This document shows, in pieces, positions 4,023 to 16,599 of a stretch of 64,000 nt of DNA. The stretch's first letter is position 1. The number at the start of each line of letters is the position of its first letter. Where the stretch lies: the IMG/VR virus record IMGVR_UViG_3300048997_000225, positions 1-64,000 of that record; one strand, given 5' to 3'. The stretch is from a virus. The position numbers were made by a program, and so were the translations under genes. The notes beneath the pieces were generated by a model. The model was not told where the DNA came from, did no database searches, and saw only the letters and a list, made by a program, of their open reading frames with translations.

Positions 4023-4520
4023 ATGTTAATTTCAGCAGATCAATTATTGTGCCATATTATTGGTGATTATGTACTTCAATCCGATTATATGGCTCAGAAT
4101 AAAACTAATAAATCATGGATTGCTATGTTCCATGCATTCTCATATAGCATTCCATTTTGGTTTGTGGCTTCATGGCGAGCCCAAGTATTCATCATAATCA
4201 GCCATTTTGTAATTGACAGATGGAGATTGGCAAGATACGTGTGTTGGGCTAAGAATTTCTTGGCTCCGAAACACATTATGTTAGAATGCAATATAGGATC
4301 ATCTATTGCTAAGTATAAGAAATCCGATGAGAAAGCCAAAATAACATTTATCGATGTTGAAACTGTGAAATCAGTTAAAACTCGGAATTTACCGTGGGCA
4401 GATTGTTCAGTTACCGGCTATTCAAAAGATACGCCTGTCTGGATGGCTGTCTGGTTAATGATTATAGTAGATAACTGTATGCACACATTATGTAACGCAT
4501 TGGCTATCAAATATTTATAA
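4023..4520 (+). CDS. DUF3307-like membrane protein
   Basis: 'HIIGDYVLQSDYMA', 'HFVIDRW', 'VDNCMH'; ATG 4023 after GGAG preferred to the TTG inside the hairpin. Confidence 0.8.
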   Translation: MLISADQLLCHIIGDYVLQSDYMAQNKTNKSWIAMFHAFSYSIPFWFVASWRAQVFIIISHFVIDRWRLARYVCWAKNFLAPKHIMLECNIGSSIAKYKKSDEKAKITFIDVETVKSVKTRNLPWADCSVTGYSKDTPVWMAVWLMIIVDNCMHTLCNALAIKYL

Positions 4521-4569
4521 AATAGATCGAATCGGCCGGTCGTATTGTTATTCATATATTTTCTATTAC

Positions 4570-5478: not shown

Positions 5479-5566
5479 TTCAACATGTACTGTACTAAAT
5501 ATTAATGATTTGGGGGACTAGAATTGAACGTTTGATTGTGTAATTTAAATATATAACGAGGAATTT

Positions 5567-6697
5567 GTGTCAGCAATAGCCTTAAATACTAATAAAGCTT
5601 CAAATGATTTCTATGACAGAGCATTGAAGGATTCCAATGTCTTAACTAGAGATGAGGAATCGTTGATTTTCCAGTCTAAATATGAACTGGAAGCGATTTT
5701 ATTCCAAAAATTATTTGATTCCAATGGTATTTTGGAAGCGTTATCTAGTTTGATACTAGATGCTATGGATTCCGAAGATAATGATAGGAAAGACCAAATC
5801 ACCGGCATTCTATCAGACATCAATAATAATATTTTTTCGATTCAAGATAAACTTACTCATTCGAAACTGCTTTGTATATGGGAGTCTATCTACGACGCTG
5901 TGCTTGCAACAGAATCGGACACTGAATTATATTATGCTAAGTTAAATTCATTAAAGAAAGATTTGAGTCAAATCAAAAATAAAATAGTCCAAGCGAATCT
6001 CCGATTAGTAGTTTCTTTAACTCGATTTTATAATAGGAAAAATCAATATACTAAGTTATCTGATTTGATCCAAGATGGAAATATCGGTCTGATTTTAGCT
6101 GTAGATAAATTCGACTGGACTTATGGCGTTAAGTTCGCTACTTATGCTGCATGGTGGATAAAACATGGGCTACGGGCTTCTCTTAAGCAACAAGAAAAAT
6201 TAGTCCGATTGCCTTCTCAAGTGATTGATAAACTATATAAAATCAATCAACTGAATACTAAGCACTTGGCTATGACAGGTGAAGATATGTCAATTCACCA
6301 GTTAGCAAAGACGCTCGACACCGAAGAAGTTCGAATGGAAGAACTTGTTCGAGTATCTAAATCAACTGTCGCGTCCATGGACGCGCCGGTCTATGCGGAT
6401 AATGATACTTCGACATTGCATGATTTATTGACTGATTCAGTTGCTTTATCTCAACATGATGTACTGCAACGCAATCAGCTCACTAAATTATTAAATAAGG
6501 CAATGGCTAAGTGTTTGAGATCAATAGAAAAAGAAATTATTATCGGCAGATTTGCTTTAGATGGTAATGAACCATTAACTCTTCAAGCTATTGCTGATAA
6601 ACATAAATTATCACGTGAACGGATTCGACAGTTAGAGAATTCTGCGCTTCGGAAATTGCGCAATGTAAGAGGGATTAATCTGAAGATTAATCTGTGA
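5567..6697 (+). CDS. RpoD/RpoS-like (group 1/2) sigma-70 factor
   Basis: 'ANLRLVVS', 'DLIQDGNIGLILAVDKFD', 'KFATYAAWWIK', 'VRLP', region 4 'LTLQAIADKHKLSRERIRQLE'. Confidence 0.95.
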   Translation: MSAIALNTNKASNDFYDRALKDSNVLTRDEESLIFQSKYELEAILFQKLFDSNGILEALSSLILDAMDSEDNDRKDQITGILSDINNNIFSIQDKLTHSKLLCIWESIYDAVLATESDTELYYAKLNSLKKDLSQIKNKIVQANLRLVVSLTRFYNRKNQYTKLSDLIQDGNIGLILAVDKFDWTYGVKFATYAAWWIKHGLRASLKQQEKLVRLPSQVIDKLYKINQLNTKHLAMTGEDMSIHQLAKTLDTEEVRMEELVRVSKSTVASMDAPVYADNDTSTLHDLLTDSVALSQHDVLQRNQLTKLLNKAMAKCLRSIEKEIIIGRFALDGNEPLTLQAIADKHKLSRERIRQLENSALRKLRNVRGINLKINL

Positions 6698-6724
6698 TGT
6701 ATTATTCCGTAGAATCAGGTGATT

Positions 6725-7042
6725 ATGTCCAATAATAACGATCGAGAATGTGATAGTGAAGATATCACATTCGTCGGAGCTGAAAATCCAGACGGTTCAT
6801 TGCCTTTCACAAGACATCGTGGAGATCACACCATTGAAAATGGTGTCATCCACCCATTGATTGAAGGCCAACCTATACTAGGAGAAGTAGTTAGTTTAAC
6901 GCCTCGAGAAGATGGTCAAGGATATAATACAGAGACTTTATACAGTCCTGACAAATCAGGACCTTGTATGTATAACAGTCAAGGATTCCAAAACGGCTGG
7001 GATGCAACTTTCGGCAACAAAGATAAATCGAAATTGAATTGA
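6725..7042 (+). CDS. hypothetical protein
   Basis: ORF in co-oriented run. Confidence 0.65.
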   Translation: MSNNNDRECDSEDITFVGAENPDGSLPFTRHRGDHTIENGVIHPLIEGQPILGEVVSLTPREDGQGYNTETLYSPDKSGPCMYNSQGFQNGWDATFGNKDKSKLN

Positions 7043-7046
7043 TTAT

Positions 7047-7541
7047 GTGATGGAAAATAATTATGATGATCCAGCATCGCCAGCTGCATATAATTTTGTA
7101 GGATATATTCAAAATCAGGATAAGCTGTGGCTCCAGAGTTTCCATGATAGACTATGGAGAAAGACTCTGCCTGATAGATTCCAACATGCAATGTTAGTCG
7201 AATCTGATGGAGTTCGACTAACGACCGAAGAACTCGATCGGATATTTAGTCTAATACGTTCCCATAAATTAATAACAGGAGTCGGATGTGGAACATTCGG
7301 GCTTCCTGGATACAGCTTCTTAATATATGATAATCCAGAAATTTGTGGATTTTTGATTCCAAAACCTGAATGTTTGTTCGTGATGACTCATAAACATCTA
7401 CCAGTTCAGTTGGATATTGGAGAATATCATCAAAAAGCTTGGGATTTGTTCTCACAATTTGCTTATTCAGATATCAATTCACAATTGCGAATATATCATG
7501 ATATGAAAAAATTGGAGAATCGTTCCTATTACGACTACTGA
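7047..7541 (+). CDS. hypothetical protein
   Basis: 164-aa ORF. Confidence 0.65.
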   Translation: MMENNYDDPASPAAYNFVGYIQNQDKLWLQSFHDRLWRKTLPDRFQHAMLVESDGVRLTTEELDRIFSLIRSHKLITGVGCGTFGLPGYSFLIYDNPEICGFLIPKPECLFVMTHKHLPVQLDIGEYHQKAWDLFSQFAYSDINSQLRIYHDMKKLENRSYYDY

Positions 7542-7576
7542 CATGTTCATTGAATCAGAGAATATGGAGATGCTAA

Positions 7577-7861
7577 ATGGAAATAATAATCAATCCTGAT
7601 GATCGGTTCCCGTGGGAAGATGAATATGGCAACGAATTTGCTACTATAGATGGTTCTCTAGCAAAATGGTCCAATCCGCCTGATTCTTGTCGAGCTTGTG
7701 TTGGCGCAATCCTCCCAGAGAATCGACGCATCGCTGATGGATGTCCATGTAATTCAGCACGCGGAATCAATCATGGTTTAGTACCAAAGAACACTTGCAC
7801 TTGTGTCGAATGCGATCCAGCTCAAACAGGTTCTACGCGCATCGGGCGTTTGAATAAATAA
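7577..7861 (+). CDS. Cys-rich hypothetical protein
   Basis: CRAC, CPC, CTCVEC; GGAG SD. Confidence 0.65.
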   Translation: MEIIINPDDRFPWEDEYGNEFATIDGSLAKWSNPPDSCRACVGAILPENRRIADGCPCNSARGINHGLVPKNTCTCVECDPAQTGSTRIGRLNK

Positions 7862-7907
7862 GCGTGATTGGTTCGTAAATCCATTAATATATTTTATACT
7901 AATTAGC

Positions 7908-8591
7908 ATGGAAAAATCACCAGACAACACTCATCCGTCCTACGGGATGATCGCGGTTAACCGGTTCACTATTGGAGGAACCAAGAAAACTCCATTTTTT
8001 GGTTCATCTTTGGATACTCACTATTCGGGAATTCGAATAGTTATAAAACGAGCTGTTTTGACGAAATATCCTGGCTCATCAAGAGTTGATCATCCATTCG
8101 CTCGCGAATCTTTGATTGAAGTTGATTTGACCGGAGCGCAGTTTGCTGAACTTATCACTGCGATGAATGTTGGTGATGGAGTTCCATGCACAATTAAACG
8201 AATCGGAGGAGAAGGGATTCCTGAACCACCTGCAATGGCAAACGAAGCTGAGAAAGTTCGCGAAGACATAAAGACAGATGTGGCTTCGTTGGCTGTAGAA
8301 GCCCGGGAACTGCTCACAGCACTTCGCTCCACTTTTGACGGGAAGAATATCAAAAAAGTGGATAGACAGGTTCTGATAAAGAAAACCGAAGCCGTGATTC
8401 AGAATCTTGAATCCAATCTCCCATACCTACTTACTCGTTTTGAAGAAGCCACTGAAAAGACTGTTGTTCGAGCTAAAGCTGAAATCGAAACGTTCATGCG
8501 TACCACACTCGAGCAAGCCGGACTCGAAGCTCTGAAATTAAATAGTCAGAATCTACTAGTCGACAAGACTCCATCGGATACTGTTGATTAG
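7908..8591 (+). CDS. conserved phage hypothetical protein (beta N-domain plus helical C-domain)
   Basis: 227-aa ORF; 'LIEVDLTGAQFAELITAMNVGDGVPCTI'. Confidence 0.7.
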   Translation: MEKSPDNTHPSYGMIAVNRFTIGGTKKTPFFGSSLDTHYSGIRIVIKRAVLTKYPGSSRVDHPFARESLIEVDLTGAQFAELITAMNVGDGVPCTIKRIGGEGIPEPPAMANEAEKVREDIKTDVASLAVEARELLTALRSTFDGKNIKKVDRQVLIKKTEAVIQNLESNLPYLLTRFEEATEKTVVRAKAEIETFMRTTLEQAGLEALKLNSQNLLVDKTPSDTVD

Positions 8592-8603
8592 TAAAATAAC
8601 TGA

Positions 8604-9857
8604 ATGTTAGAAATATTCAATCAATTTGCCCACAATGATGTATTTAGTGGAGTGGTCGGCGGATCGCTGCTCGTTAGCATCATTTATCTCTTTAAAAGCA
8701 TTCCAAGGAATCTATTGGATGCGTTTATGTGGCGATTCACTTCGGTGCTGATTGTTTTCAATGAAGATCCGGCATTTGATATTGTGAGTGAATGGTTATC
8801 ATCACTTGAATATTCCAAGAAGGCTCGTCGCCTCCGTTTAACATCCAATTATTCAGAATACGATCAAGCTAACGTTCCGAAATTTTCGCCGGGAATTGGT
8901 AAGCATCTGATTTGGTATAAACGAAATCCAGTTATCATAGAACGTTTTGTCCCACAAGAAGGACAAGGTTCCGGCGGATATAAACGGCGAGAAGACATAA
9001 GTATCCGGACGCTCGGGACTTCTCCAGCATTCATGCATCAGTTAATCGAGCAAATTACTCAAGCTCGGACAGCGACTAATAAGAAATATGTTGAAATATA
9101 TATGTTCCGTGGTTGTTGGCGTTTAGCTTGTCGAAAAATGAAACGATCTCTTGAATCAGTGATTCTTCCTGAAGATCAAAAAGAAAATATTACTATAGAT
9201 ATTCAAAAATTCCAGAAGTCACGATCTTGGTATGCACAGCGCGGGATTCCCTATCGACGCGGATTTTTATTATATGGTCCGCCTGGATGTGGTAAGACTA
9301 GTTTAATTTTGGCTATCGCTAGTCATTTTTCTAAATGCATATATTCTCTGAACTTAGGCAGCGTAATAAATGACGATCAACTTATTGATGCTATAACCAG
9401 TGTTCCAGAAGACGCTATTCTGCTAATAGAAGATATTGATGCTGCTCAAAATAAGAGAGAACTGGTTCAAGAGTCTCCTGTTCCCAGTTATAAATCCGAT
9501 ATTCCGATATCTCCAGAGGAAACTCGATCAATTTCATTGAGTGCATTGCTAAACTCGATTGATGGAGTATTCAGCAGAGATGGTCGGATTTTGTTTATGA
9601 CGACCAATCATGTAGAGAAAATCGATCCGGCTTTGATGCGGCCCGGTCGAGTGGATAGAAAAGAGTATATCGGAGCATTTTCAGATAAAGAAATCTTGAA
9701 AATGTGCGTCCAATATGTCCATAATGTAGAATATGCTAACCGGTTAGCCAAAACAATTCCCGGTCCAATCATGCCGGCAGAGCTCCAGCAGCTTTTGCTC
9801 ATTAAACGCAATCATTCCGAAAATCATAAACCAATAGATATTTCTCAATTATCATGA
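8604..9857 (+). CDS. BCS1-like membrane-anchored AAA+ ATPase
   Basis: N-terminal TM; BCS1_N-like 'FSPGIGKHLIWYK'; 'WYAQRGIPYRRGFLLYGPPGCGKTS'; Walker B 'LLIEDID'; 'LLNSIDG'; 'MTTNHVEKIDPALMRPGRVD'. Confidence 0.92.
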   Translation: MLEIFNQFAHNDVFSGVVGGSLLVSIIYLFKSIPRNLLDAFMWRFTSVLIVFNEDPAFDIVSEWLSSLEYSKKARRLRLTSNYSEYDQANVPKFSPGIGKHLIWYKRNPVIIERFVPQEGQGSGGYKRREDISIRTLGTSPAFMHQLIEQITQARTATNKKYVEIYMFRGCWRLACRKMKRSLESVILPEDQKENITIDIQKFQKSRSWYAQRGIPYRRGFLLYGPPGCGKTSLILAIASHFSKCIYSLNLGSVINDDQLIDAITSVPEDAILLIEDIDAAQNKRELVQESPVPSYKSDIPISPEETRSISLSALLNSIDGVFSRDGRILFMTTNHVEKIDPALMRPGRVDRKEYIGAFSDKEILKMCVQYVHNVEYANRLAKTIPGPIMPAELQQLLLIKRNHSENHKPIDISQLS

Positions 9858-10351
9858 ATAATTATATGTCAGTAATATTCCTTATATTTTATATTGTGTT
9901 GAGCACAATTATAATGTATTGCGTTATAACAATTATCTCAACGTTGTTGACTAAAATACTGAGACAATCACCAGAAATGAGTAAAGTCCCTAGCATAAAT
10001 TGTGAATTTAAAGATTTTTTCTCACATACAATTCCTAAAAACTTCACATTTTATTCATCATCTGATCTGCTATATATTGATAAAGATAGAAATCTTTATG
10101 TAAAGTATGGTCACGTCATTCAAAACATAGCAAATAGGAATACAGTTATTATTCGTAAAGATTCATTAAATAATCTACATGTAATCACTGAACATAATAT
10201 TCAATTTTCTCTAAATAAACGTGAGATGTCAGATGGTTGTTTTGTAACTACTATTCGATTCGTACCCGGATGGATGTTACCCCTAGTATTCAAAAAATGC
10301 AGGCGTGAAGACTACACTAATAAAATAGCCGAAATTGTTATGGAATCATGA
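9854..10351 (+). CDS. membrane-anchored protein, paralog family A (copy 1), C-terminus IVMES
   Basis: N-terminal TM; 'TIPKNF', 'VIIRKD'; ATGA overlap with the ATPase. Confidence 0.75.
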   Translation: MNNYMSVIFLIFYIVLSTIIMYCVITIISTLLTKILRQSPEMSKVPSINCEFKDFFSHTIPKNFTFYSSSDLLYIDKDRNLYVKYGHVIQNIANRNTVIIRKDSLNNLHVITEHNIQFSLNKREMSDGCFVTTIRFVPGWMLPLVFKKCRREDYTNKIAEIVMES

Positions 10352-10881
10352 AACACAGCTGGATTCATATAGTATGTTTCGTAATATCTTTCGTTCTATT
10401 TATGATGATAATAATGGGTGACGAATTTTTTAGATTATATAAAGAACGGCAATATAAAAATTATCTTTATCGGGTTCTTAAATTGGAACCGCCAAGCATC
10501 GATACAAGATTTATTAACATTGATACACTGCCTAGGAATTCGATTGCATATATATTTGTAGATTCTTGCCGTTTCCGCAAAATAGATTCTGCAACGCCAG
10601 TTTTGTTATTTATTTGGACCCGCGGCTCTGTAGTCGATTGGATACCGGTGCGATCTAATCGCATTATATTACATAAAGATCATGTTGGTGAATATAATGT
10701 CTATATTAATAATTGGGTAAAGCAAAACATAAAAGTCGAACGTTATCCGACATTTTTGGATGGACAAATTCAAGTGAAATCATATATGTATATTCCAACA
10801 CATCAGACGTATTATATATTTGATAAATTACGCAAACAATGCGAAGTCGATGCACTGATTTGTGATGTGATGGAATCTTGA
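10348..10881 (+). CDS. membrane-anchored protein, paralog family A (copy 2), C-terminus DVMES
   Basis: N-terminal TM; 'TLPRNSIAYI', 'RIILHKD'; ATGA overlap. Confidence 0.75.
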   Translation: MKHSWIHIVCFVISFVLFMMIIMGDEFFRLYKERQYKNYLYRVLKLEPPSIDTRFINIDTLPRNSIAYIFVDSCRFRKIDSATPVLLFIWTRGSVVDWIPVRSNRIILHKDHVGEYNVYINNWVKQNIKVERYPTFLDGQIQVKSYMYIPTHQTYYIFDKLRKQCEVDALICDVMES

Positions 10882-11411
10882 AACTCGATGCCGGAACTTT
10901 TTGGTTATTCTGTTTTGGTATTGAATTCACATATATCGCATTGGAATGGTTCCGATCAAAAGATTATCGGGATTACATATTTGGACTCCCATTCGATGGA
11001 TTTACGATATTGAAAGAATTGCCAGCAAATTCTGTTATCTATATTCCATGCAAGACGTTAGTTATTGACGTCGTTAATAACTATCGATTATGTATCGATA
11101 TCAGACGTCGAGCTTATATGAGACTGCCTTATGGATGGAATAAAATCATCTTACATAGAGATAACTCTGGAAGCTTCCATTTATATATAAATATATTGAT
11201 TATTAATCATTTTCCAAATTTACGTAAATTGGATTATCCATCTATCACCGATGATTTATCAACATCTTTAGTGCAAATTTTGCATTCTGACAGATATATT
11301 CATCCGACCAACATCAATTTCATTGATTCGCATCAGTTCGAGTCCAAATTTCAAGAATTGCAAGCTGAATGTTATGACTCACGATTCATCCATGATGTTA
11401 TGGTTAGTTAA
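10878..11411 (+). CDS. membrane-anchored protein, paralog family A (copy 3), C-terminus DVMVS
   Basis: N-terminal TM; 'ELPANSVIYI', 'KIILHRD'; TTGA overlap. Confidence 0.75.
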   Translation: MKLDAGTFWLFCFGIEFTYIALEWFRSKDYRDYIFGLPFDGFTILKELPANSVIYIPCKTLVIDVVNNYRLCIDIRRRAYMRLPYGWNKIILHRDNSGSFHLYINILIINHFPNLRKLDYPSITDDLSTSLVQILHSDRYIHPTNINFIDSHQFESKFQELQAECYDSRFIHDVMVS

Positions 11412-11812
11412 TGATTGAACATATTCGCCAACCCGGTGGATCAAAAGTATGTGGACACTCTTGTTTGGCTATGATTTTAGGCATTCCGCTTGAGCAAGCC
11501 ATTGGACTCATTGGGCATAGACATGGGACCAGGACTCGAGAACTTTTAAAACATCTTGGAACAAGAGCACTTGATTCTCGACTCCGAGTAATAACTAAAA
11601 AACTTATACTCCCAGATTTTGCGTTGCTTAAAGTCCGATGGGCTGATATTACGTTTGGTCATTATGTTTTAAAAATACATAAATTAGTGCATGATCCTGA
11701 ACTGCCTATCGGGGTCCCAATCGAAGATTGGAATCTTTGGATTATTTCAATGCATGGTAAGGTGACTTCGTATTTACCAGTGAGTCATTGTGGAAATCTA
11801 AATAATTCCTAA
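11411..11812 (+). CDS. C39-like cysteine peptidase
   Basis: 'IRQPGGSKVCGHSCLAMILG' (Q-x-C-G-x-x-C-L-A-M), 'GHYVL', 'HDP'. Confidence 0.75.
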   Translation: MIEHIRQPGGSKVCGHSCLAMILGIPLEQAIGLIGHRHGTRTRELLKHLGTRALDSRLRVITKKLILPDFALLKVRWADITFGHYVLKIHKLVHDPELPIGVPIEDWNLWIISMHGKVTSYLPVSHCGNLNNS

Positions 11813-11816
11813 TTAG

Positions 11817-12791
11817 TTGGATGCAGGACAGCCAATGCCAAACCTGAACCAACATCAAGATACAATTGACCGCGCTCTCCGCCCTCTCAATTTTAAGGAA
11901 TTCCTTGGCCAGGAAGAAGCCAAGGCAAATTTGCAAGTTTATGTGTGCTCTGCTAGAAATCGGAGAGAGCCTTTGGATCATGTGCTGTTGGCTGGACCGG
12001 CCGGTTTGGGAAAAACCACTCTTGCCGGAATTTTGGCTAACGAAATGGGTACTCGACTAGTGGTCGTCAATGCTCCTGCACTCAAAACTAAAGGAGAACT
12101 GGCTGCCCTTTTGACTAGTCTCCGTCGTAATGATATTTTGTTCATTGACGAAATTCATAGTTTGAATTCCAAAATTGAAGAAGTCTTGTATCCGGCCATG
12201 GAAGATTACAAACTCGAGATGGTTGCCGGAAATCGTGCTATCACTATTCCACTCGAACCTTTCACATTGATCGGTGCTACAACTCGTGCCGGCATGTTGC
12301 AGCGCCCATTGCGTGACCGTTTTGGGATCAAAGTCGAAATGCAGCCATATTCAACGGACGAACTTTCGCAGATTATTGCCAGTTCGGCACGCAAGCTCGG
12401 AATGGATTGTAGTATGCAAGGTGCGAATGAACTCGCTGGTCGTAGTCACGGTACGCCTCGAATCGCTATTTCGTTGCTCAAGCGAGTTCGAGATTTCACG
12501 AACGTCGCCAATACCAACACGGTTGATGCGGCGATAGTGCAGTTCACTTGTTCTAGACTTGGTATAGATAAACTTGGTCTAGATAAGACAGCTCAAAAAT
12601 ATCTTCAGATTCTGGCCGATAAACGCGCTCCAATTGCTCAGAAGACTTTAGCAGCGCTTCTTGGAGAATCACTCGATGTAGTAGAAGAAGTGATAGAACC
12701 AATTTTGTTGCGGCTTCAATTCATTGAAATCACGGCCAAAGGTCGAATGCTAACTAATGTTGGTGCCAATCATATTGCTCTTGTAAATTAA
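11817..12791 (+). CDS. ruvB: Holliday junction branch-migration ATPase RuvB
   Basis: 'LRPLNFKEFLGQ', 'LDHVLLAGPAGLGKTTLA', 'LFIDEIH', 'LYPAMED', 'FTLIGATTRAG', 'PLRDRFG', 'GTPRIA'. Confidence 0.96.
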   Translation: MDAGQPMPNLNQHQDTIDRALRPLNFKEFLGQEEAKANLQVYVCSARNRREPLDHVLLAGPAGLGKTTLAGILANEMGTRLVVVNAPALKTKGELAALLTSLRRNDILFIDEIHSLNSKIEEVLYPAMEDYKLEMVAGNRAITIPLEPFTLIGATTRAGMLQRPLRDRFGIKVEMQPYSTDELSQIIASSARKLGMDCSMQGANELAGRSHGTPRIAISLLKRVRDFTNVANTNTVDAAIVQFTCSRLGIDKLGLDKTAQKYLQILADKRAPIAQKTLAALLGESLDVVEEVIEPILLRLQFIEITAKGRMLTNVGANHIALVN

Positions 12792-12794
12792 AAT

Positions 12795-13190
12795 ATGGAA
12801 TTCTACCTAGCAGACATGATATTTTTTGTGTTTGGAATAATAACATCATTAATCTTGTTAGGAACGTCTTCTATACTAGATATTTGTGGTTATTCCAAGC
12901 CGATTACTGACGCCGTCCAGTTATTTGCTTTTATAATTGGGATTATGTTGTCAGTTGGAATAGCAACTTGGACGCTACGCCATGATTATTTTGTATATTA
13001 TGGTGCAGTCGGAACCGTATCAGCGACAATACTACACTGTAAAATTGGCCGTCGCTGGCAATGGTCAGATAAACAGATCATGTTCATGGGGTCATTGTGG
13101 CCAATGACCATATTATTTTCGCCATGGATTATTCACGGCAATGAACAAAAATATAAATTGCGAATAATCCAGGAAATTATGGAAGAATAA
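12795..13190 (+). CDS. multi-pass membrane protein, paralog family B (copy 1), C-terminus EIMEE
   Basis: Several TM segments; 'RRWQW...LWPMTIL'. Confidence 0.75.
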   Translation: MEFYLADMIFFVFGIITSLILLGTSSILDICGYSKPITDAVQLFAFIIGIMLSVGIATWTLRHDYFVYYGAVGTVSATILHCKIGRRWQWSDKQIMFMGSLWPMTILFSPWIIHGNEQKYKLRIIQEIMEE

Positions 13191-13192
13191 TT

Positions 13193-13513
13193 TTGTGTTC
13201 TAAATGCAGGAAACCGATACCATTCCAAAAACTAGGTAATATGATAATCCAAGGATTTTGTAATGGATTGAATTATCTAGTCTGGGATTTGAGTTTCCGA
13301 TTTGATATATTATTCTTATATATCCATCTTGTTGGCATAGTAATAATATATTTGATTTTGAGATATTTGAAAGTCAGATGGCATTTGAATGCTTCGATAA
13401 TATATCCTATGATTACGTTTTGGCCAATAACAATATTATTATCTTGGTTTGTAACATCGAAATTTGAACAATCGCGTAAGCAACGATTGATTTGCGACGT
13501 CATGGATAGTTAA
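13193..13513 (+). CDS. membrane protein, paralog family B (copy 2), C-terminus DVMDS
   Basis: 'VRWHL...FWPITIL'; start uncertain (TTG 13193 or ATG 13241). Confidence 0.7.
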   Translation: MCSKCRKPIPFQKLGNMIIQGFCNGLNYLVWDLSFRFDILFLYIHLVGIVIIYLILRYLKVRWHLNASIIYPMITFWPITILLSWFVTSKFEQSRKQRLICDVMDS

Positions 13514-13815
13514 TGTGGGTTCCAAACAATAATTCATTGAGTTGGCGAGATAAAGTATTTGACCATATTATCGCAGCAATGATGATAACGATGGTCGCCA
13601 ATGATTGGACTGGATCATATTATGTTAGTATACTATGGTTATTGGGCTTCGTGGTTTATGCAATTGTGCTATGGAAACTTAGGAATCGTTGGAAAATAGA
13701 ATGTGATTTCCAAATTTTCGGCATGGCTGTTTGGTGGTTTGTTTTTGTTTTTTGGATTCCGGAATTTGAACGCAATTACAAAGCTGATATTGTGAAAGAT
13801 ATTATGGATTTATAA
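13513..13815 (+). CDS. membrane protein, paralog family B (copy 3), C-terminus DIMDL
   Basis: 'NRWKI...VWWFVF'; TAATG coupling. Confidence 0.75.
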   Translation: MWVPNNNSLSWRDKVFDHIIAAMMITMVANDWTGSYYVSILWLLGFVVYAIVLWKLRNRWKIECDFQIFGMAVWWFVFVFWIPEFERNYKADIVKDIMDL

Positions 13816-13818
13816 CCG

Positions 13819-13837
13819 ATATATATATATATATATA
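13819..13837. repeat. (AT)9A dinucleotide microsatellite
   Basis: ATATATATATATATATATA immediately after the TAA of 13513..13815. Confidence 0.9.
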
Positions 13838-13875
13838 GTGCTTTTTGGATCTATAGATATAACGTTGATTTAGTA

Positions 13876-14055
13876 TTGATCATAGTAATTGATTCGATTC
13901 TATTTCCCTTCCAATCCCGCTGGAAGCTAAAGACGAATCATATAGTCATTTACGGAATAATCTGGCCATATATTCTAACAGCAGCGTATTGGCTAGTTCG
14001 GAATTGGGAAGCTGAACGCAACGCAAGAATCGTGACCAACGTAATGACGTCATGA
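13876..14055 (+). CDS. membrane protein, paralog family B (copy 4, absent from ORF track), C-terminus NVMTS
   Basis: Frame open from 13816; 'QSRWKLKTNHIVIYGIIWPYILTAAYWLVRNWEAERNARIVTNVMTS'; first standard start is TTG 13876; ATGA overlap with next gene. Confidence 0.7.
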   Translation: MIIVIDSILFPFQSRWKLKTNHIVIYGIIWPYILTAAYWLVRNWEAERNARIVTNVMTS

Positions 14056-14339
14056 ATAAAAAAGTTTTTCCAATCTTAAAAGTTTCTTCTGAACGTCCTC
14101 GAATAATTCATAAATCGGCGTGTGCGCATTGTCCGAGTGCACATTTCCCTCCAGATCCGGAAGCCGAAGACATAAAGTATGCTCCGAGAGCAATCCAAAT
14201 TGAATCATGTTTCCCATGTGGCTGGAGACCCAATAAACTATGTAAGGGATATTGTGATTATTTGAATATAACAGAACGAGATTTAGAATCTACAATTTAT
14301 ATTGTTGTCAATGTAAAATCGGAAAATGCAATTGTCTGA
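14052..14339 (+). CDS. Cys-rich hypothetical protein
   Basis: CAHC...CFPC...LCKGYC. Confidence 0.65.
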   Translation: MNKKVFPILKVSSERPRIIHKSACAHCPSAHFPPDPEAEDIKYAPRAIQIESCFPCGWRPNKLCKGYCDYLNITERDLESTIYIVVNVKSENAIV

Positions 14340-14706
14340 ACAAGATAAATTAGTTGGCGAAGAATTCCGAAGTCGATTGAAGCAGTTAACTGATTTGATG
14401 ACAGTTGATCAGTTAACGGTTTCACACTCATTCGACACATATCGATTCGGACAAAAACAATCTCACTTTTGTTCCATGAATTTCAAAATTCCGCCCAATT
14501 CAACACAGAGAGAAGTTGAAGCTTTGCATTTGCAAGCCGGATTATTCGTGGCTCGATGTACAATTCACGATGCATTGGCTCAAGGATCAATTTCTATAGA
14601 AGAAGCTAAAGAAAAATTGACAATGTCTCAGACTAATTATGATAACATATTGAATATATTAGTCAAGAAATATATCATGGAATCCACAGAAACTGTTGCT
14701 AGGTAA
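14326..14706 (+). CDS. hypothetical protein
   Basis: 126-aa ORF. Confidence 0.7.
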   Translation: MQLSEQDKLVGEEFRSRLKQLTDLMTVDQLTVSHSFDTYRFGQKQSHFCSMNFKIPPNSTQREVEALHLQAGLFVARCTIHDALAQGSISIEEAKEKLTMSQTNYDNILNILVKKYIMESTETVAR

Positions 14707-14718
14707 AGTCTAATATCT

Positions 14719-15567
14719 ATGACTGATCAATTATCCGAAGCTTTCCAATTCGATCCATCGAATATCTCTGGATATATTTCCTCTAATAAATTGGAAGATA
14801 TTCTTGAAGAAATTGCTGGATATGAAATCCAACTTCCAGATGATCCGACGTTGCCGGAGCTCGGAACTAAATTATTGAATTCCAATATTGCTAAATGCCG
14901 CAATTATATAAATCGAGTTCAATATTATTTGCAAATCACTCGACGCTATGAAAAAAATTTACGAACAGAAATTAGTTTTTCTACATTAGATTTGGAATTC
15001 AAAACTCAAAAATTGTTGGCGGATGATCCAATAGTTAAACAAGGGCCAGCACAGCAAGATAGATTAGCCATTGCTGCGATGAAACTCAATCTTGAACACA
15101 AAAAACTACATGTGCTTAAAGTCGAACATGTGAATGTTGAAGAGACTATCAAAATCATCAAACTCAAATATGATGATTTGAATCGCACATCTCAAGATAT
15201 TCGTTTGCAACGTCAAATTGTGAAAGATGATAAAGAAAGCTGGAGTAACGGAGGAGAAGGTTATATGCCTCCACAAACCAATAGAGATGGTACCATTCCC
15301 GGAGGAATGTCTCCGCATGTTCGTGAAAAAATTGTGAATCCGACAGATTTATTGGATGAATCGAAACGTCCGGAAGATTTGCCAGTTCCTGTAGATGCTG
15401 TACATGCACAGCAAATTGCTGATTTTTTTAATCAAGCTCCGATTTCTGATATTTCCACAGCTCAATCAGAAATCATTCGGTCAACTGAACCTGCTTTGGA
15501 CCCTGAGAATATTCCTAAAATTGCTAGTCAATCGGTAATGTCGTACGATGATTTGCTTGCTGATTGA
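14719..15567 (+). CDS. coiled-coil protein, possible UvsY-like recombination mediator
   Basis: Long helical region with 'LLADDPIV'; acidic tail 'SYDDLLAD'; lies upstream of SSB/ruvC/recA. Confidence 0.45.
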   Translation: MTDQLSEAFQFDPSNISGYISSNKLEDILEEIAGYEIQLPDDPTLPELGTKLLNSNIAKCRNYINRVQYYLQITRRYEKNLRTEISFSTLDLEFKTQKLLADDPIVKQGPAQQDRLAIAAMKLNLEHKKLHVLKVEHVNVEETIKIIKLKYDDLNRTSQDIRLQRQIVKDDKESWSNGGEGYMPPQTNRDGTIPGGMSPHVREKIVNPTDLLDESKRPEDLPVPVDAVHAQQIADFFNQAPISDISTAQSEIIRSTEPALDPENIPKIASQSVMSYDDLLAD

Positions 15568-15717: not shown

Positions 15718-16599
15718 ATGTCTGGAATTATTGAATTCGGTTTCGAAGAGTCCAAGGTTGTTAAACCCCAAGGTATTGATTCATTCAAACTCTCTCGTTC
15801 AGGAGAAGTCGCTCGGATTTCCATTATTATTTTTAAGTTATATCATGAGGTTATTTGGGCCCAAAAAGCTAAAGAAGCTGGCCGAGCGTTGACTGAAGAA
15901 GAAAAGCAAATGTATCTGACTAAGGTCAATTCCAAATTGGCTGAAAAATTGGGCAAGAAACCTGAAGAACTTACTGAATTTGATAGATTGGATATCAATT
16001 CGCCCAAATTTGGAACGGCGTTCACTCATTATAGAGACGGCATCGGCAGTATTCGATGTTTGAGCAAATATGAAGGCGGCAATTTAGTCAAACCCGAAAT
16101 TTGTTGCAATGATATCGGGGAAGCTGAACAGCAAGTTGCCACGTTGGTTTTGAAATATCCGGTCGAAAAAGATGGAAAAATCGATTTAGATTTGCTCAAA
16201 CAACGCAAATATACTGAAATCATGACTTGGCGTATGAGTGCAAAGCGCTTTAAGAAAATTGAAAGCACTTATACTGATGCGCGTAATAACAAGATGCCAG
16301 TTATCGATCTCAAGTTAACTTTGGATGGTGATCCAAAGTACAAGAAATTGGTTCCTGAAAACGGATATACAGCGGCTTGGGCACGTGAAGACGCAGATCC
16401 GGAGCTGCGTCGATGGGTACTGGAGAGCGGGCTCCGGAATGTTAAATACCTCAAGTCGGAGCTTGGTTTCGAAATGAGTAAAGAGAAGCTCACGGAACGT
16501 CTTCGAGGCGCTTCGGAAAGTGCAGCGGCTCTGTCTGGTGGTGAGGCTTCAGCGGCTTCTCCGCAGATTACTACGTCATACGACGCGCTTCTCGAATAA
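15718..16599 (+). CDS. putative single-stranded DNA-binding protein (gp32-like)
   Basis: His/Cys cluster 'HY...RC...ICC'; Ala/Ser linker; acidic-hydrophobic tail 'SYDALLE'; strong SD; directly upstream of ruvC-recA. Confidence 0.55.
   Translation: MSGIIEFGFEESKVVKPQGIDSFKLSRSGEVARISIIIFKLYHEVIWAQKAKEAGRALTEEEKQMYLTKVNSKLAEKLGKKPEELTEFDRLDINSPKFGTAFTHYRDGIGSIRCLSKYEGGNLVKPEICCNDIGEAEQQVATLVLKYPVEKDGKIDLDLLKQRKYTEIMTWRMSAKRFKKIESTYTDARNNKMPVIDLKLTLDGDPKYKKLVPENGYTAAWAREDADPELRRWVLESGLRNVKYLKSELGFEMSKEKLTERLRGASESAAALSGGEASAASPQITTSYDALLE

Follow-up and report, generated by a model that had tools for sequence, protein, structure and literature searches.

A C-terminal peptide recurring on small accessory proteins of a huge-phage clade is a candidate portable address tag

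We analyzed the first 64,000 nucleotides (the window) of the viral contig IMGVR_UViG_3300048997_000225, in which seven small proteins encoded between positions 8604 and 14055, in a cluster that opens with the gene of a BCS1-like AAA ATPase, share one short C-terminal motif. The seven tails are most probably local copies of a tag common to a clade of huge phages. Comprising roughly the last eight residues, the tag would be defined by valine or isoleucine at positions -7 and -4 (counted from the C-terminus), methionine at -3, usually glutamate or aspartate at -2 and serine at -1, often with glutamate at -10, and its hydrophobic residues would be spaced as in a short amphipathic helix whose end is the free carboxylate. 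Roughly one in three of the small accessory proteins, which evolve fast, appears to carry it, whatever their fold and whether soluble or membrane-bound, and none of the large core proteins does. We propose that a single shared partner, neither the BCS1-like ATPase nor the C39-like peptidase encoded beside the tails, recognises it post-translationally as an address or docking peptide; in the window the tag would mark two families of small membrane proteins in the variable regions flanking ruvB. We give a probability of about 0.7 to this reading, that is, a portable, protein-level address or docking tag used throughout the clade and read by one shared partner.

The window belongs to a single contig of 132,503 bases (G000; CheckV completeness ∼30%), which is the partial genome of a huge phage. 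Between 8604 and 14055 its genes are tightly packed, all on the plus strand and mostly with overlapping stops and starts, in the order of a 417-amino-acid (aa) ATPase, A1 to A3 (165-177 aa), a 133-aa open reading frame (ORF), ruvB, and B1 to B4 (59-131 aa). An earlier interpretation made from the DNA letters and their translations, the sequence-only reading, had described seven shared tails in this cluster. All seven ORFs are present and each ends in [V/I]-M-x-x-stop: A1 (9854-10351, 165 aa, KIAEIVMES), A2 (10348-10881, 177 aa, LICDVMES), A3 (10878-11411, 177 aa, TTG start, FIHDVMVS), the multi-pass B1 (12795-13190, 131 aa, IIQEIMEE), B2 (13193-13513, 106 aa, LICDVMDS), B3 (13513-13815, 100 aa, IVKDIMDL), and B4 (13816-14055, earliest start codon TTG at 13876, IVTNVMTS). 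The synonymous codon variation claimed for the tails is also real (GTT, GTG, GTC, GTA, and ATT at -4; TCA, TCT, and AGT at -1), and the stop of the ATPase gene does share an ATGA with the start of A1 (9854/9857). The carriers do form two otherwise unrelated paralogous families, A (three members, 20-26% identity) and B (four members, 21-32% identity), which a profile-profile comparison aligned with each other only over the last 14 columns.

By hydropathy scan, six of the seven carriers (A1, A2, and B1 to B4) have hydrophobic segments of membrane-spanning length. The single N-terminal membrane helix that had been ascribed to the whole of family A is found in A1 and A2 and not in A3, whose N-terminus is weakly hydrophobic and which has no clear hydrophobic segment. 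An AlphaFold2 model of A1 shows a confident helix at residues 2-36; its overall pLDDT is low (54), and the model is too poor to show how the tail sits. The positive-inside rule predicts a cytoplasmic tail for family A. For family B the topology is ambiguous because the tail is less basic than the loop that precedes the last hydrophobic segment. With A2 as query, a word-based search of 5.8 billion proteins returned only A2 itself and tblastn against phages gave no match, and megablast of the whole cluster against a phage collection gave none either. B4 follows in frame directly on the B3 stop codon (TAA) and an (AT)9 tract (window 13813-14055), and its likeness to family B begins immediately after that TAA, before the TTG at 13876. 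The sole tRNA found in the window by ARAGORN (1624-1695) has the anticodon TTA, that of an ochre suppressor, and TAA still serves as the stop in many window genes, tagged ones among them. Given this suppressor tRNA, a B3-B4 read-through product is conceivable.

Over the whole contig, 14 of 130 proteins have [IV]M at positions -4/-3, against 0.31 expected (binomial P 3e-19), and 0-1 have it at neighbouring offsets. This protein set combined 125 proteins from a simple in-house gene caller, nine of them tagged, with five added by hand, all tail-bearing. When all six frames were taken from stop to stop, 22 of the 1,961 frames of at least 30 aa ended in [IV]M-x-x. The claim that no gene outside the cluster ends this way holds inside the window and fails over the contig, where seven more carriers lie at 104-123 kb (104836-105666, 110594-110944, 111185-111799, 115751-116296, 116336-116590, 122348-122590, and 122835-123083). 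Three of these were submitted to the hydropathy scan, the products of 115751-116296 (181 aa), 116336-116590 (84 aa), and 122835-123083 (82 aa), and all three lack a membrane segment. The product of 104836-105666 (minus strand) is an R2K-clade ATP-grasp protein (PF14243, E 5e-20) with the tag-like ending VVMSY; R2K-clade ATP-grasp enzymes are thought to add amino acids onto protein C-termini. Within the window, the product of 14326-14706 has a tag-like KKYIMES six residues from its end (...STETVAR), which may be a decayed or extended tag; the orthologue in the relative G001, introduced below, lacks the motif.

The gene between the two families, ruvB (11817-12791, plus strand, 324 aa; Pfam RuvB_N, E 1e-61), is untagged and, as a conserved core gene, provided a synteny anchor. 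Searching with RuvB led to G001, a complete viral contig of 427 kb whose RuvB is 66% identical, and the 17 kb around the ruvB gene of G001 contain 11 ORFs with the same tail. Genome-wide, 155 of the 614 predicted genes of G001 end in [IV]M-x-x, compared with 2.0 expected and with 0-4 at other offsets. These 155 proteins have valine or isoleucine at -7 in 127 cases, glutamate, aspartate, or asparagine at -2 in 99, serine at -1 in 92, and glutamate at -10 in 52. The tagged share is 32-37% among proteins below 200 aa and 7% at 200-400 aa, while none of the 55 proteins of at least 400 aa is tagged, and the tagged genes are concentrated at 60-250 kb, in the accessory and not the structural region. 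Just downstream of ruvB, both our contig and G001 have a variable stretch that encodes small tagged proteins, including membrane proteins.

Three further relatives, found through a conserved AAA gene and spanning a GC content of 0.42-0.57, carry the tag as well: 72 of 469 genes in G003 (first 400 kb of 436 kb, GC 0.50; 1.3 expected), 30 of 440 in G005 (362 kb, GC 0.57; 1.2 expected), and 19 of 239 in G007 (241 kb). G005 also has variants with glutamine (17) or histidine (16) at -3. Tails were present, too, in the 20-kb flanks of loci with a GC content of up to 0.68. Nineteen unrelated control loci had 0-2 such frames each, compared with 12 of 90 frames in the related locus L051, and the 50 kb sampled from the unrelated huge phage LR745208.1 had none. 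A literature search found no description of such a C-terminal tag. A further relative, G008 (L171-L177, first 140 kb), has the [IV]M tail on 1 of 182 genes; its small proteins are enriched in glutamate at -5, threonine at -7, glutamate at -10, and aspartate at -11, and it may use a different, lineage-specific tag.

What the carriers have in common is the tail. Once stripped of their last 12 residues, the 169 tagged proteins of the contig and G001 fell into 164 BLASTP clusters, 159 of them singletons, and in none of the 66 reciprocal-best pairs between the contig and G001 were both partners tagged. As far as these comparisons go, the carriers appear to turn over while the tail persists. Among the 20 longest tagged proteins of G001, 18 had no Pfam family, one was M16-like, and one RuvC-like. 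The view of the carriers as membrane effectors does not capture their defining property: a predicted membrane segment is present in 7 of 146 tagged small proteins of G001 versus 19 of 283 untagged ones. The tail is encoded with all valine and all serine codons, all three stop codons occur after it, and valine codons at -7 in G001 (43/14/23/12) follow the genome expectation (40/13.7/23.5/14.8). Because the peptide is retained in genomes with a GC content of 0.40-0.57, with all of these codons and stops in use and a genome-like usage at -7, selection acts on the amino acids. The tag exists across the clade, is portable between proteins, and is under selection at the protein level.

It is also independent of BCS1. 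The identification of the ATPase gene (8604-9857, plus strand, 417 aa) was confirmed by matches to PF08740 BCS1_N (E 1.4e-23; 84 bits, cut-off 28.1), PF00004 AAA (E 6e-20), and phrog_7485 (E 1e-91); BCS1_N is followed by a classical AAA cassette, and the hydropathy scan, the only evidence on this point, places a hydrophobic N-terminal segment at residues ∼12-33. Mitochondrial Bcs1, which as a heptameric ring moves the folded Rieske protein Rip1, has the same combination of BCS1_N, AAA, and N-terminal hydrophobic helix. The sequence-only reading had supposed that the tail is read by this ATPase, or by the adjacent C39-like peptidase, and that the membrane proteins bearing it are thereby sorted, extracted, or translocated. 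The genes for BCS1, A1, A2, A3, and the peptidase are indeed adjacent and translationally coupled, and A1 and A2 have an N-terminal membrane helix followed by a C-terminal domain, the layout of the known Bcs1 client (PMC12219900). Phage homologues of BCS1 have been proposed as possible translocases of folded proteins (PMC7824862).

We nevertheless consider such a role for the ATPase or the peptidase highly improbable. When the co-occurrence of tag and BCS1, on which the earlier proposal had staked its validity, was examined, BCS1_N was found in the contig (E 1.2e-25) and in none of 11 related records (G001 and ten more; five complete), although these carry up to 155 tagged genes; the tagged relatives counted above (155/614, 72/469, 30/440, and 19/239) do without BCS1_N. 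A search of G001 with the ATPase protein matched only the AAA domain of RuvB. The stretch 7047-11812, comprising three small genes, BCS1, A1 to A3, and the peptidase gene, is an insertion between two genes that are adjacent in G001, an accessory island confined to this contig. Far from this block, the contig encodes tagged proteins that lack a predicted membrane segment. Moreover, in a crude scan of 14 other BCS1-bearing phage loci, no membrane-anchored gene recurred downstream of the ATPase, and two of the 14 had a downstream ORF with a hydrophobic N-terminus. With the ATPase as query, no close relative was found; BCS1-anchored loci in viral and metagenome collections were ∼30-35% identical and had no [IV]M tails, and the protein encoded upstream of BCS1 (7908-8591) had a homologue near BCS1 in one other locus only. 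The known client is also read differently, since Bcs1 recognises Rip1 through complementary charged surfaces inside its vestibule and no C-terminal tag is involved (PMC12219900), while the phage tag is present in relatives that lack BCS1_N. A local client relationship between the ATPase and A1 to A3 could be layered on the general tag; the comparisons gave it no support. Apart from this, one BCS1-bearing metagenome phage, L006 (and L007), has a different recurrent tail, T-L-W-D-x-L-x-x-D, placed after proline-rich linkers; in L006 it occurs on four or five otherwise different proteins (609-1001, 1271-1762, 4198-4521, 5502-5957, and 10554-11030).

The product of 11411-11812 (plus strand, 133 aa, untagged) had been called a C39 peptidase. 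Only its homologues and fold bear this out; the protein itself has no Pfam match, none to PF03412 even at E values up to 1, and no sequence match in the Protein Data Bank (PDB). It has 547 homologous clusters in a representative library. An alignment of 60 sequences shows no variation at Q7 and H84 and conservation of at least 90% at C14 and D95; three of the 60 homologues match PF03412 Peptidase_C39 (best E 8.4e-5), and no other family was matched. The AlphaFold2 model (pLDDT 95) had the peptidase domains of PCAT1 and ComA as its top PDB matches (TM 0.53-0.67; Foldseek E 3.8e-4 to PCAT1), and the ESM Atlas agreed with a C39-like assignment. There is thus a fair case, built on the model and the alignment, for a stand-alone C39-like cysteine peptidase with a papain fold. 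A word-based search of 5.8 billion proteins found only the protein itself, a scan of viral contigs found no relative, and no meaningful match came from searching solved structures with a profile of the peptidase alignment. C39 domains cleave a double-glycine leader and are usually joined to an ABC exporter. The phage protein shares the fold and the conserved glutamine, cysteine, histidine, and aspartate with the C39 domains of the bacteriocin exporters PCAT1 and ComA; unlike them, it is not fused to an ABC transporter, and the phage tails hold no Gly-Gly site. Its family is present in this contig and G003 and absent from G001, G004, and G005. Because BCS1_N is missing from all 11 related records and the peptidase family occurs in only one of four complete relatives, neither protein can be the general reader of the tag.

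The proposal that the tail is a recognition or docking signal keeps its core, namely selection at the protein level, the exact C-terminal position, and unrelated carriers, and loses its link to the ATPase; a host factor is a possible reader. We infer that one reader exists. Since integral membrane proteins carry the tag, this reader must reach tails at the membrane. What follows upon reading is a guess, and a doubtful one: an AAA+ machine might handle the carriers, which would either be turned over by a host protease such as FtsH, ClpXP, or Lon or dock on the conserved 499-aa AAA protein discussed below.

Several AAA+ machines read C-terminal tails, including ClpXP, ClpAP, and FtsH (ssrA tags), those acting on MuA-type tails, Vps4 with its MIT domain (MIM helices of ESCRT-III), and partners of HbYX motifs; ssrA-type and MuA-type tags act as degrons. 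The phage tag resembles these tails in its shortness, its place at the very C-terminus, its portability among unrelated proteins, and probably its recognition by one shared partner, and the MIM helices are likewise terminal amphipathic helices. It differs in that the genes themselves encode it, in up to a quarter of the gene set of a virus, and its V-x-x-[V/I]-M-E-S sequence matches none of these motifs. A C-terminal degron, by which a host AAA+ protease (FtsH or alternatively ClpXP or Lon) would recognise accessory proteins of short lifetime, would explain why the tag is exactly C-terminal, portable, and found on small accessory proteins and on no large core proteins, and FtsH would reach soluble and membrane carriers alike. 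We regard this as a rather unlikely explanation: known bacterial C-degrons end in non-polar residues, whereas the phage tail ends in an acidic residue and serine, and four complete relatives lack any phage-encoded protease domain of the ClpP, Lon, or FtsH type.

Docking on a hub encoded by the phage itself, either a 499-aa AAA ATPase or an AAA_2-like ATPase of ∼312-398 aa seen in the relatives, is an unlikely alternative. The 499-aa protein (contig 112363-113862, minus strand; Pfam AAA, E 6e-21) is a classical AAA ATPase conserved at 40-63% identity in 23 viral loci and encoded by each of the four complete tagged genomes that were sampled (L096, L097, L100, and L104). In G001, L100, L104, and L106, the ∼2.2 kb upstream of its gene contain tagged genes, in a region otherwise poor in tags; in this contig, tagged genes flank it on both sides. 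Most of the 23 loci, however, have no tagged gene beside it, and where four or five phages do have one there, a variable spot common to them may be the cause. A complex prediction for this ATPase (20-row alignment) with residues 112-181 of the 115751-116296 protein scored 0.06 against a threshold of 0.32 and speaks neither for nor against docking. For the AAA_2-like protein, there is a weak match (312-398 aa) in all four complete relatives. We treat the 499-aa AAA protein as a candidate reader, a lead rather than evidence. In a more ambitious version, the tag would be the address label of a proteome-wide pathway encoded by the virus, perhaps with the 499-aa AAA protein as reader, to which, in this phage, an acquired BCS1-like translocase that moves the tagged, Rieske-like single-pass proteins of family A across the membrane would have been added; we think this improbable. 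If true, a third of the small accessory proteins of the phage would be collected, sorted, or disposed of by the pathway, which would be a viral counterpart of ssrA or PTS1-type addressing.

Short terminal peptides also direct many unrelated proteins to a single destination in the T4 capsid-targeting sequence, the cargo-loading peptides of encapsulins, and peroxisomal PTS1. The phage tag has the look of such cargo-loading systems, in that one short terminal peptide sits on many unrelated small proteins, and it could be a signal for loading into a capsid or another compartment. We find this very unlikely, because the integral membrane proteins A1, A2, and B1 to B4 carry the tag, because a single genome has 155 different tagged proteins (more than 150 per genome, unlike known cargo sets), and because the tags concentrate in the accessory region at 60-250 kb and not in the structural region; neither a protease cutting site nor a receptor is evident. 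The tag is akin in kind to C-terminal degrons, docking tails, and cargo-address peptides and is set apart from them by its scale, its sequence, and the lack of a known reader.

Several points weigh against a portable tag read by one partner. This analysis found no reader. ClpP, Lon_C, Peptidase_M41, and Cpn60 are absent from the contig and four complete relatives, in which the positive controls matched, and for this reason there is no candidate for a phage-encoded protease or chaperonin reader. Exposure of the tails is presumed, the only model of a tagged protein being the low-confidence one of A1. BLASTP cannot exclude a hidden common ancestry of some of the fast-diverging small tagged proteins. 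Six of the 11 related records are incomplete, which makes the absence of BCS1_N from them weak, and the argument rests on the five complete ones. All gene counts come from a crude in-house caller, so that the denominators are approximate. Finally, codon usage in the tail is biased at -4 (GTG 38 versus 11.9 expected; ATC 31 versus 16.5) and at -1 (TCA 45 versus 21 expected), and ATGA start overlaps account for only part of this bias; an overlap with the next start is present in 73 of 131 tagged and 89 of 204 untagged small genes.

The last of these points bears on a different kind of explanation, in which the motif acts during translation, through the nascent chain at termination or re-initiation, or as an RNA or DNA signal at gene ends. 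Its exact register with the stop codon, the mild codon bias, and the somewhat higher frequency of start-stop overlaps would fit, and a role in translation is not entirely dismissed by our data. The same peptide is nonetheless kept across the range of GC content given above, with every synonymous codon and all three stops in use and a genome-like codon choice at -7. In addition, the gene that comes next lies on the opposite strand for 31 of 131 tagged genes (56 of 204 among untagged genes), leaving these without a co-directional neighbour downstream. Together, these observations make an action in translation or as a nucleic-acid signal most improbable. Translational coupling as the main purpose of the tag was considered separately and rejected, as those 31 genes precede a gene on the opposite strand.

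If the reading as a portable address or docking tag is correct, a gene-encoded peptide on 10-25% of the genes of a virus implies one partner that touches much of the accessory proteome of huge phages. Naming this partner would provide a handle on hundreds of proteins without an assigned function, on their timing, location, and lifetime, and the presence of the tag on integral membrane proteins narrows what the reader can be. The peptide might also serve as a portable tag for use in the host. For the cluster in the window, the value of the analysis is corrective: its reading as a BCS1 sorting system fails the co-occurrence test that came with it.

A scan of 6500-15000 for promoters and terminators showed no difference from shuffled sequences. 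A second tail is present downstream of the cluster, where the adjacent conserved proteins encoded at 14719-15567 and 15718-16599 end in SYDDLLAD and SYDALLE after low-complexity linkers. Their orthologues in G001 (49-50% identity) end in ISYEDLLK and GYDDLL, with counterparts in L051 at 13155-13919 and 13999-14886. From its sequence this second tail looks like an acidic docking tip, and UvsX-like and RuvC-like genes adjoin it.

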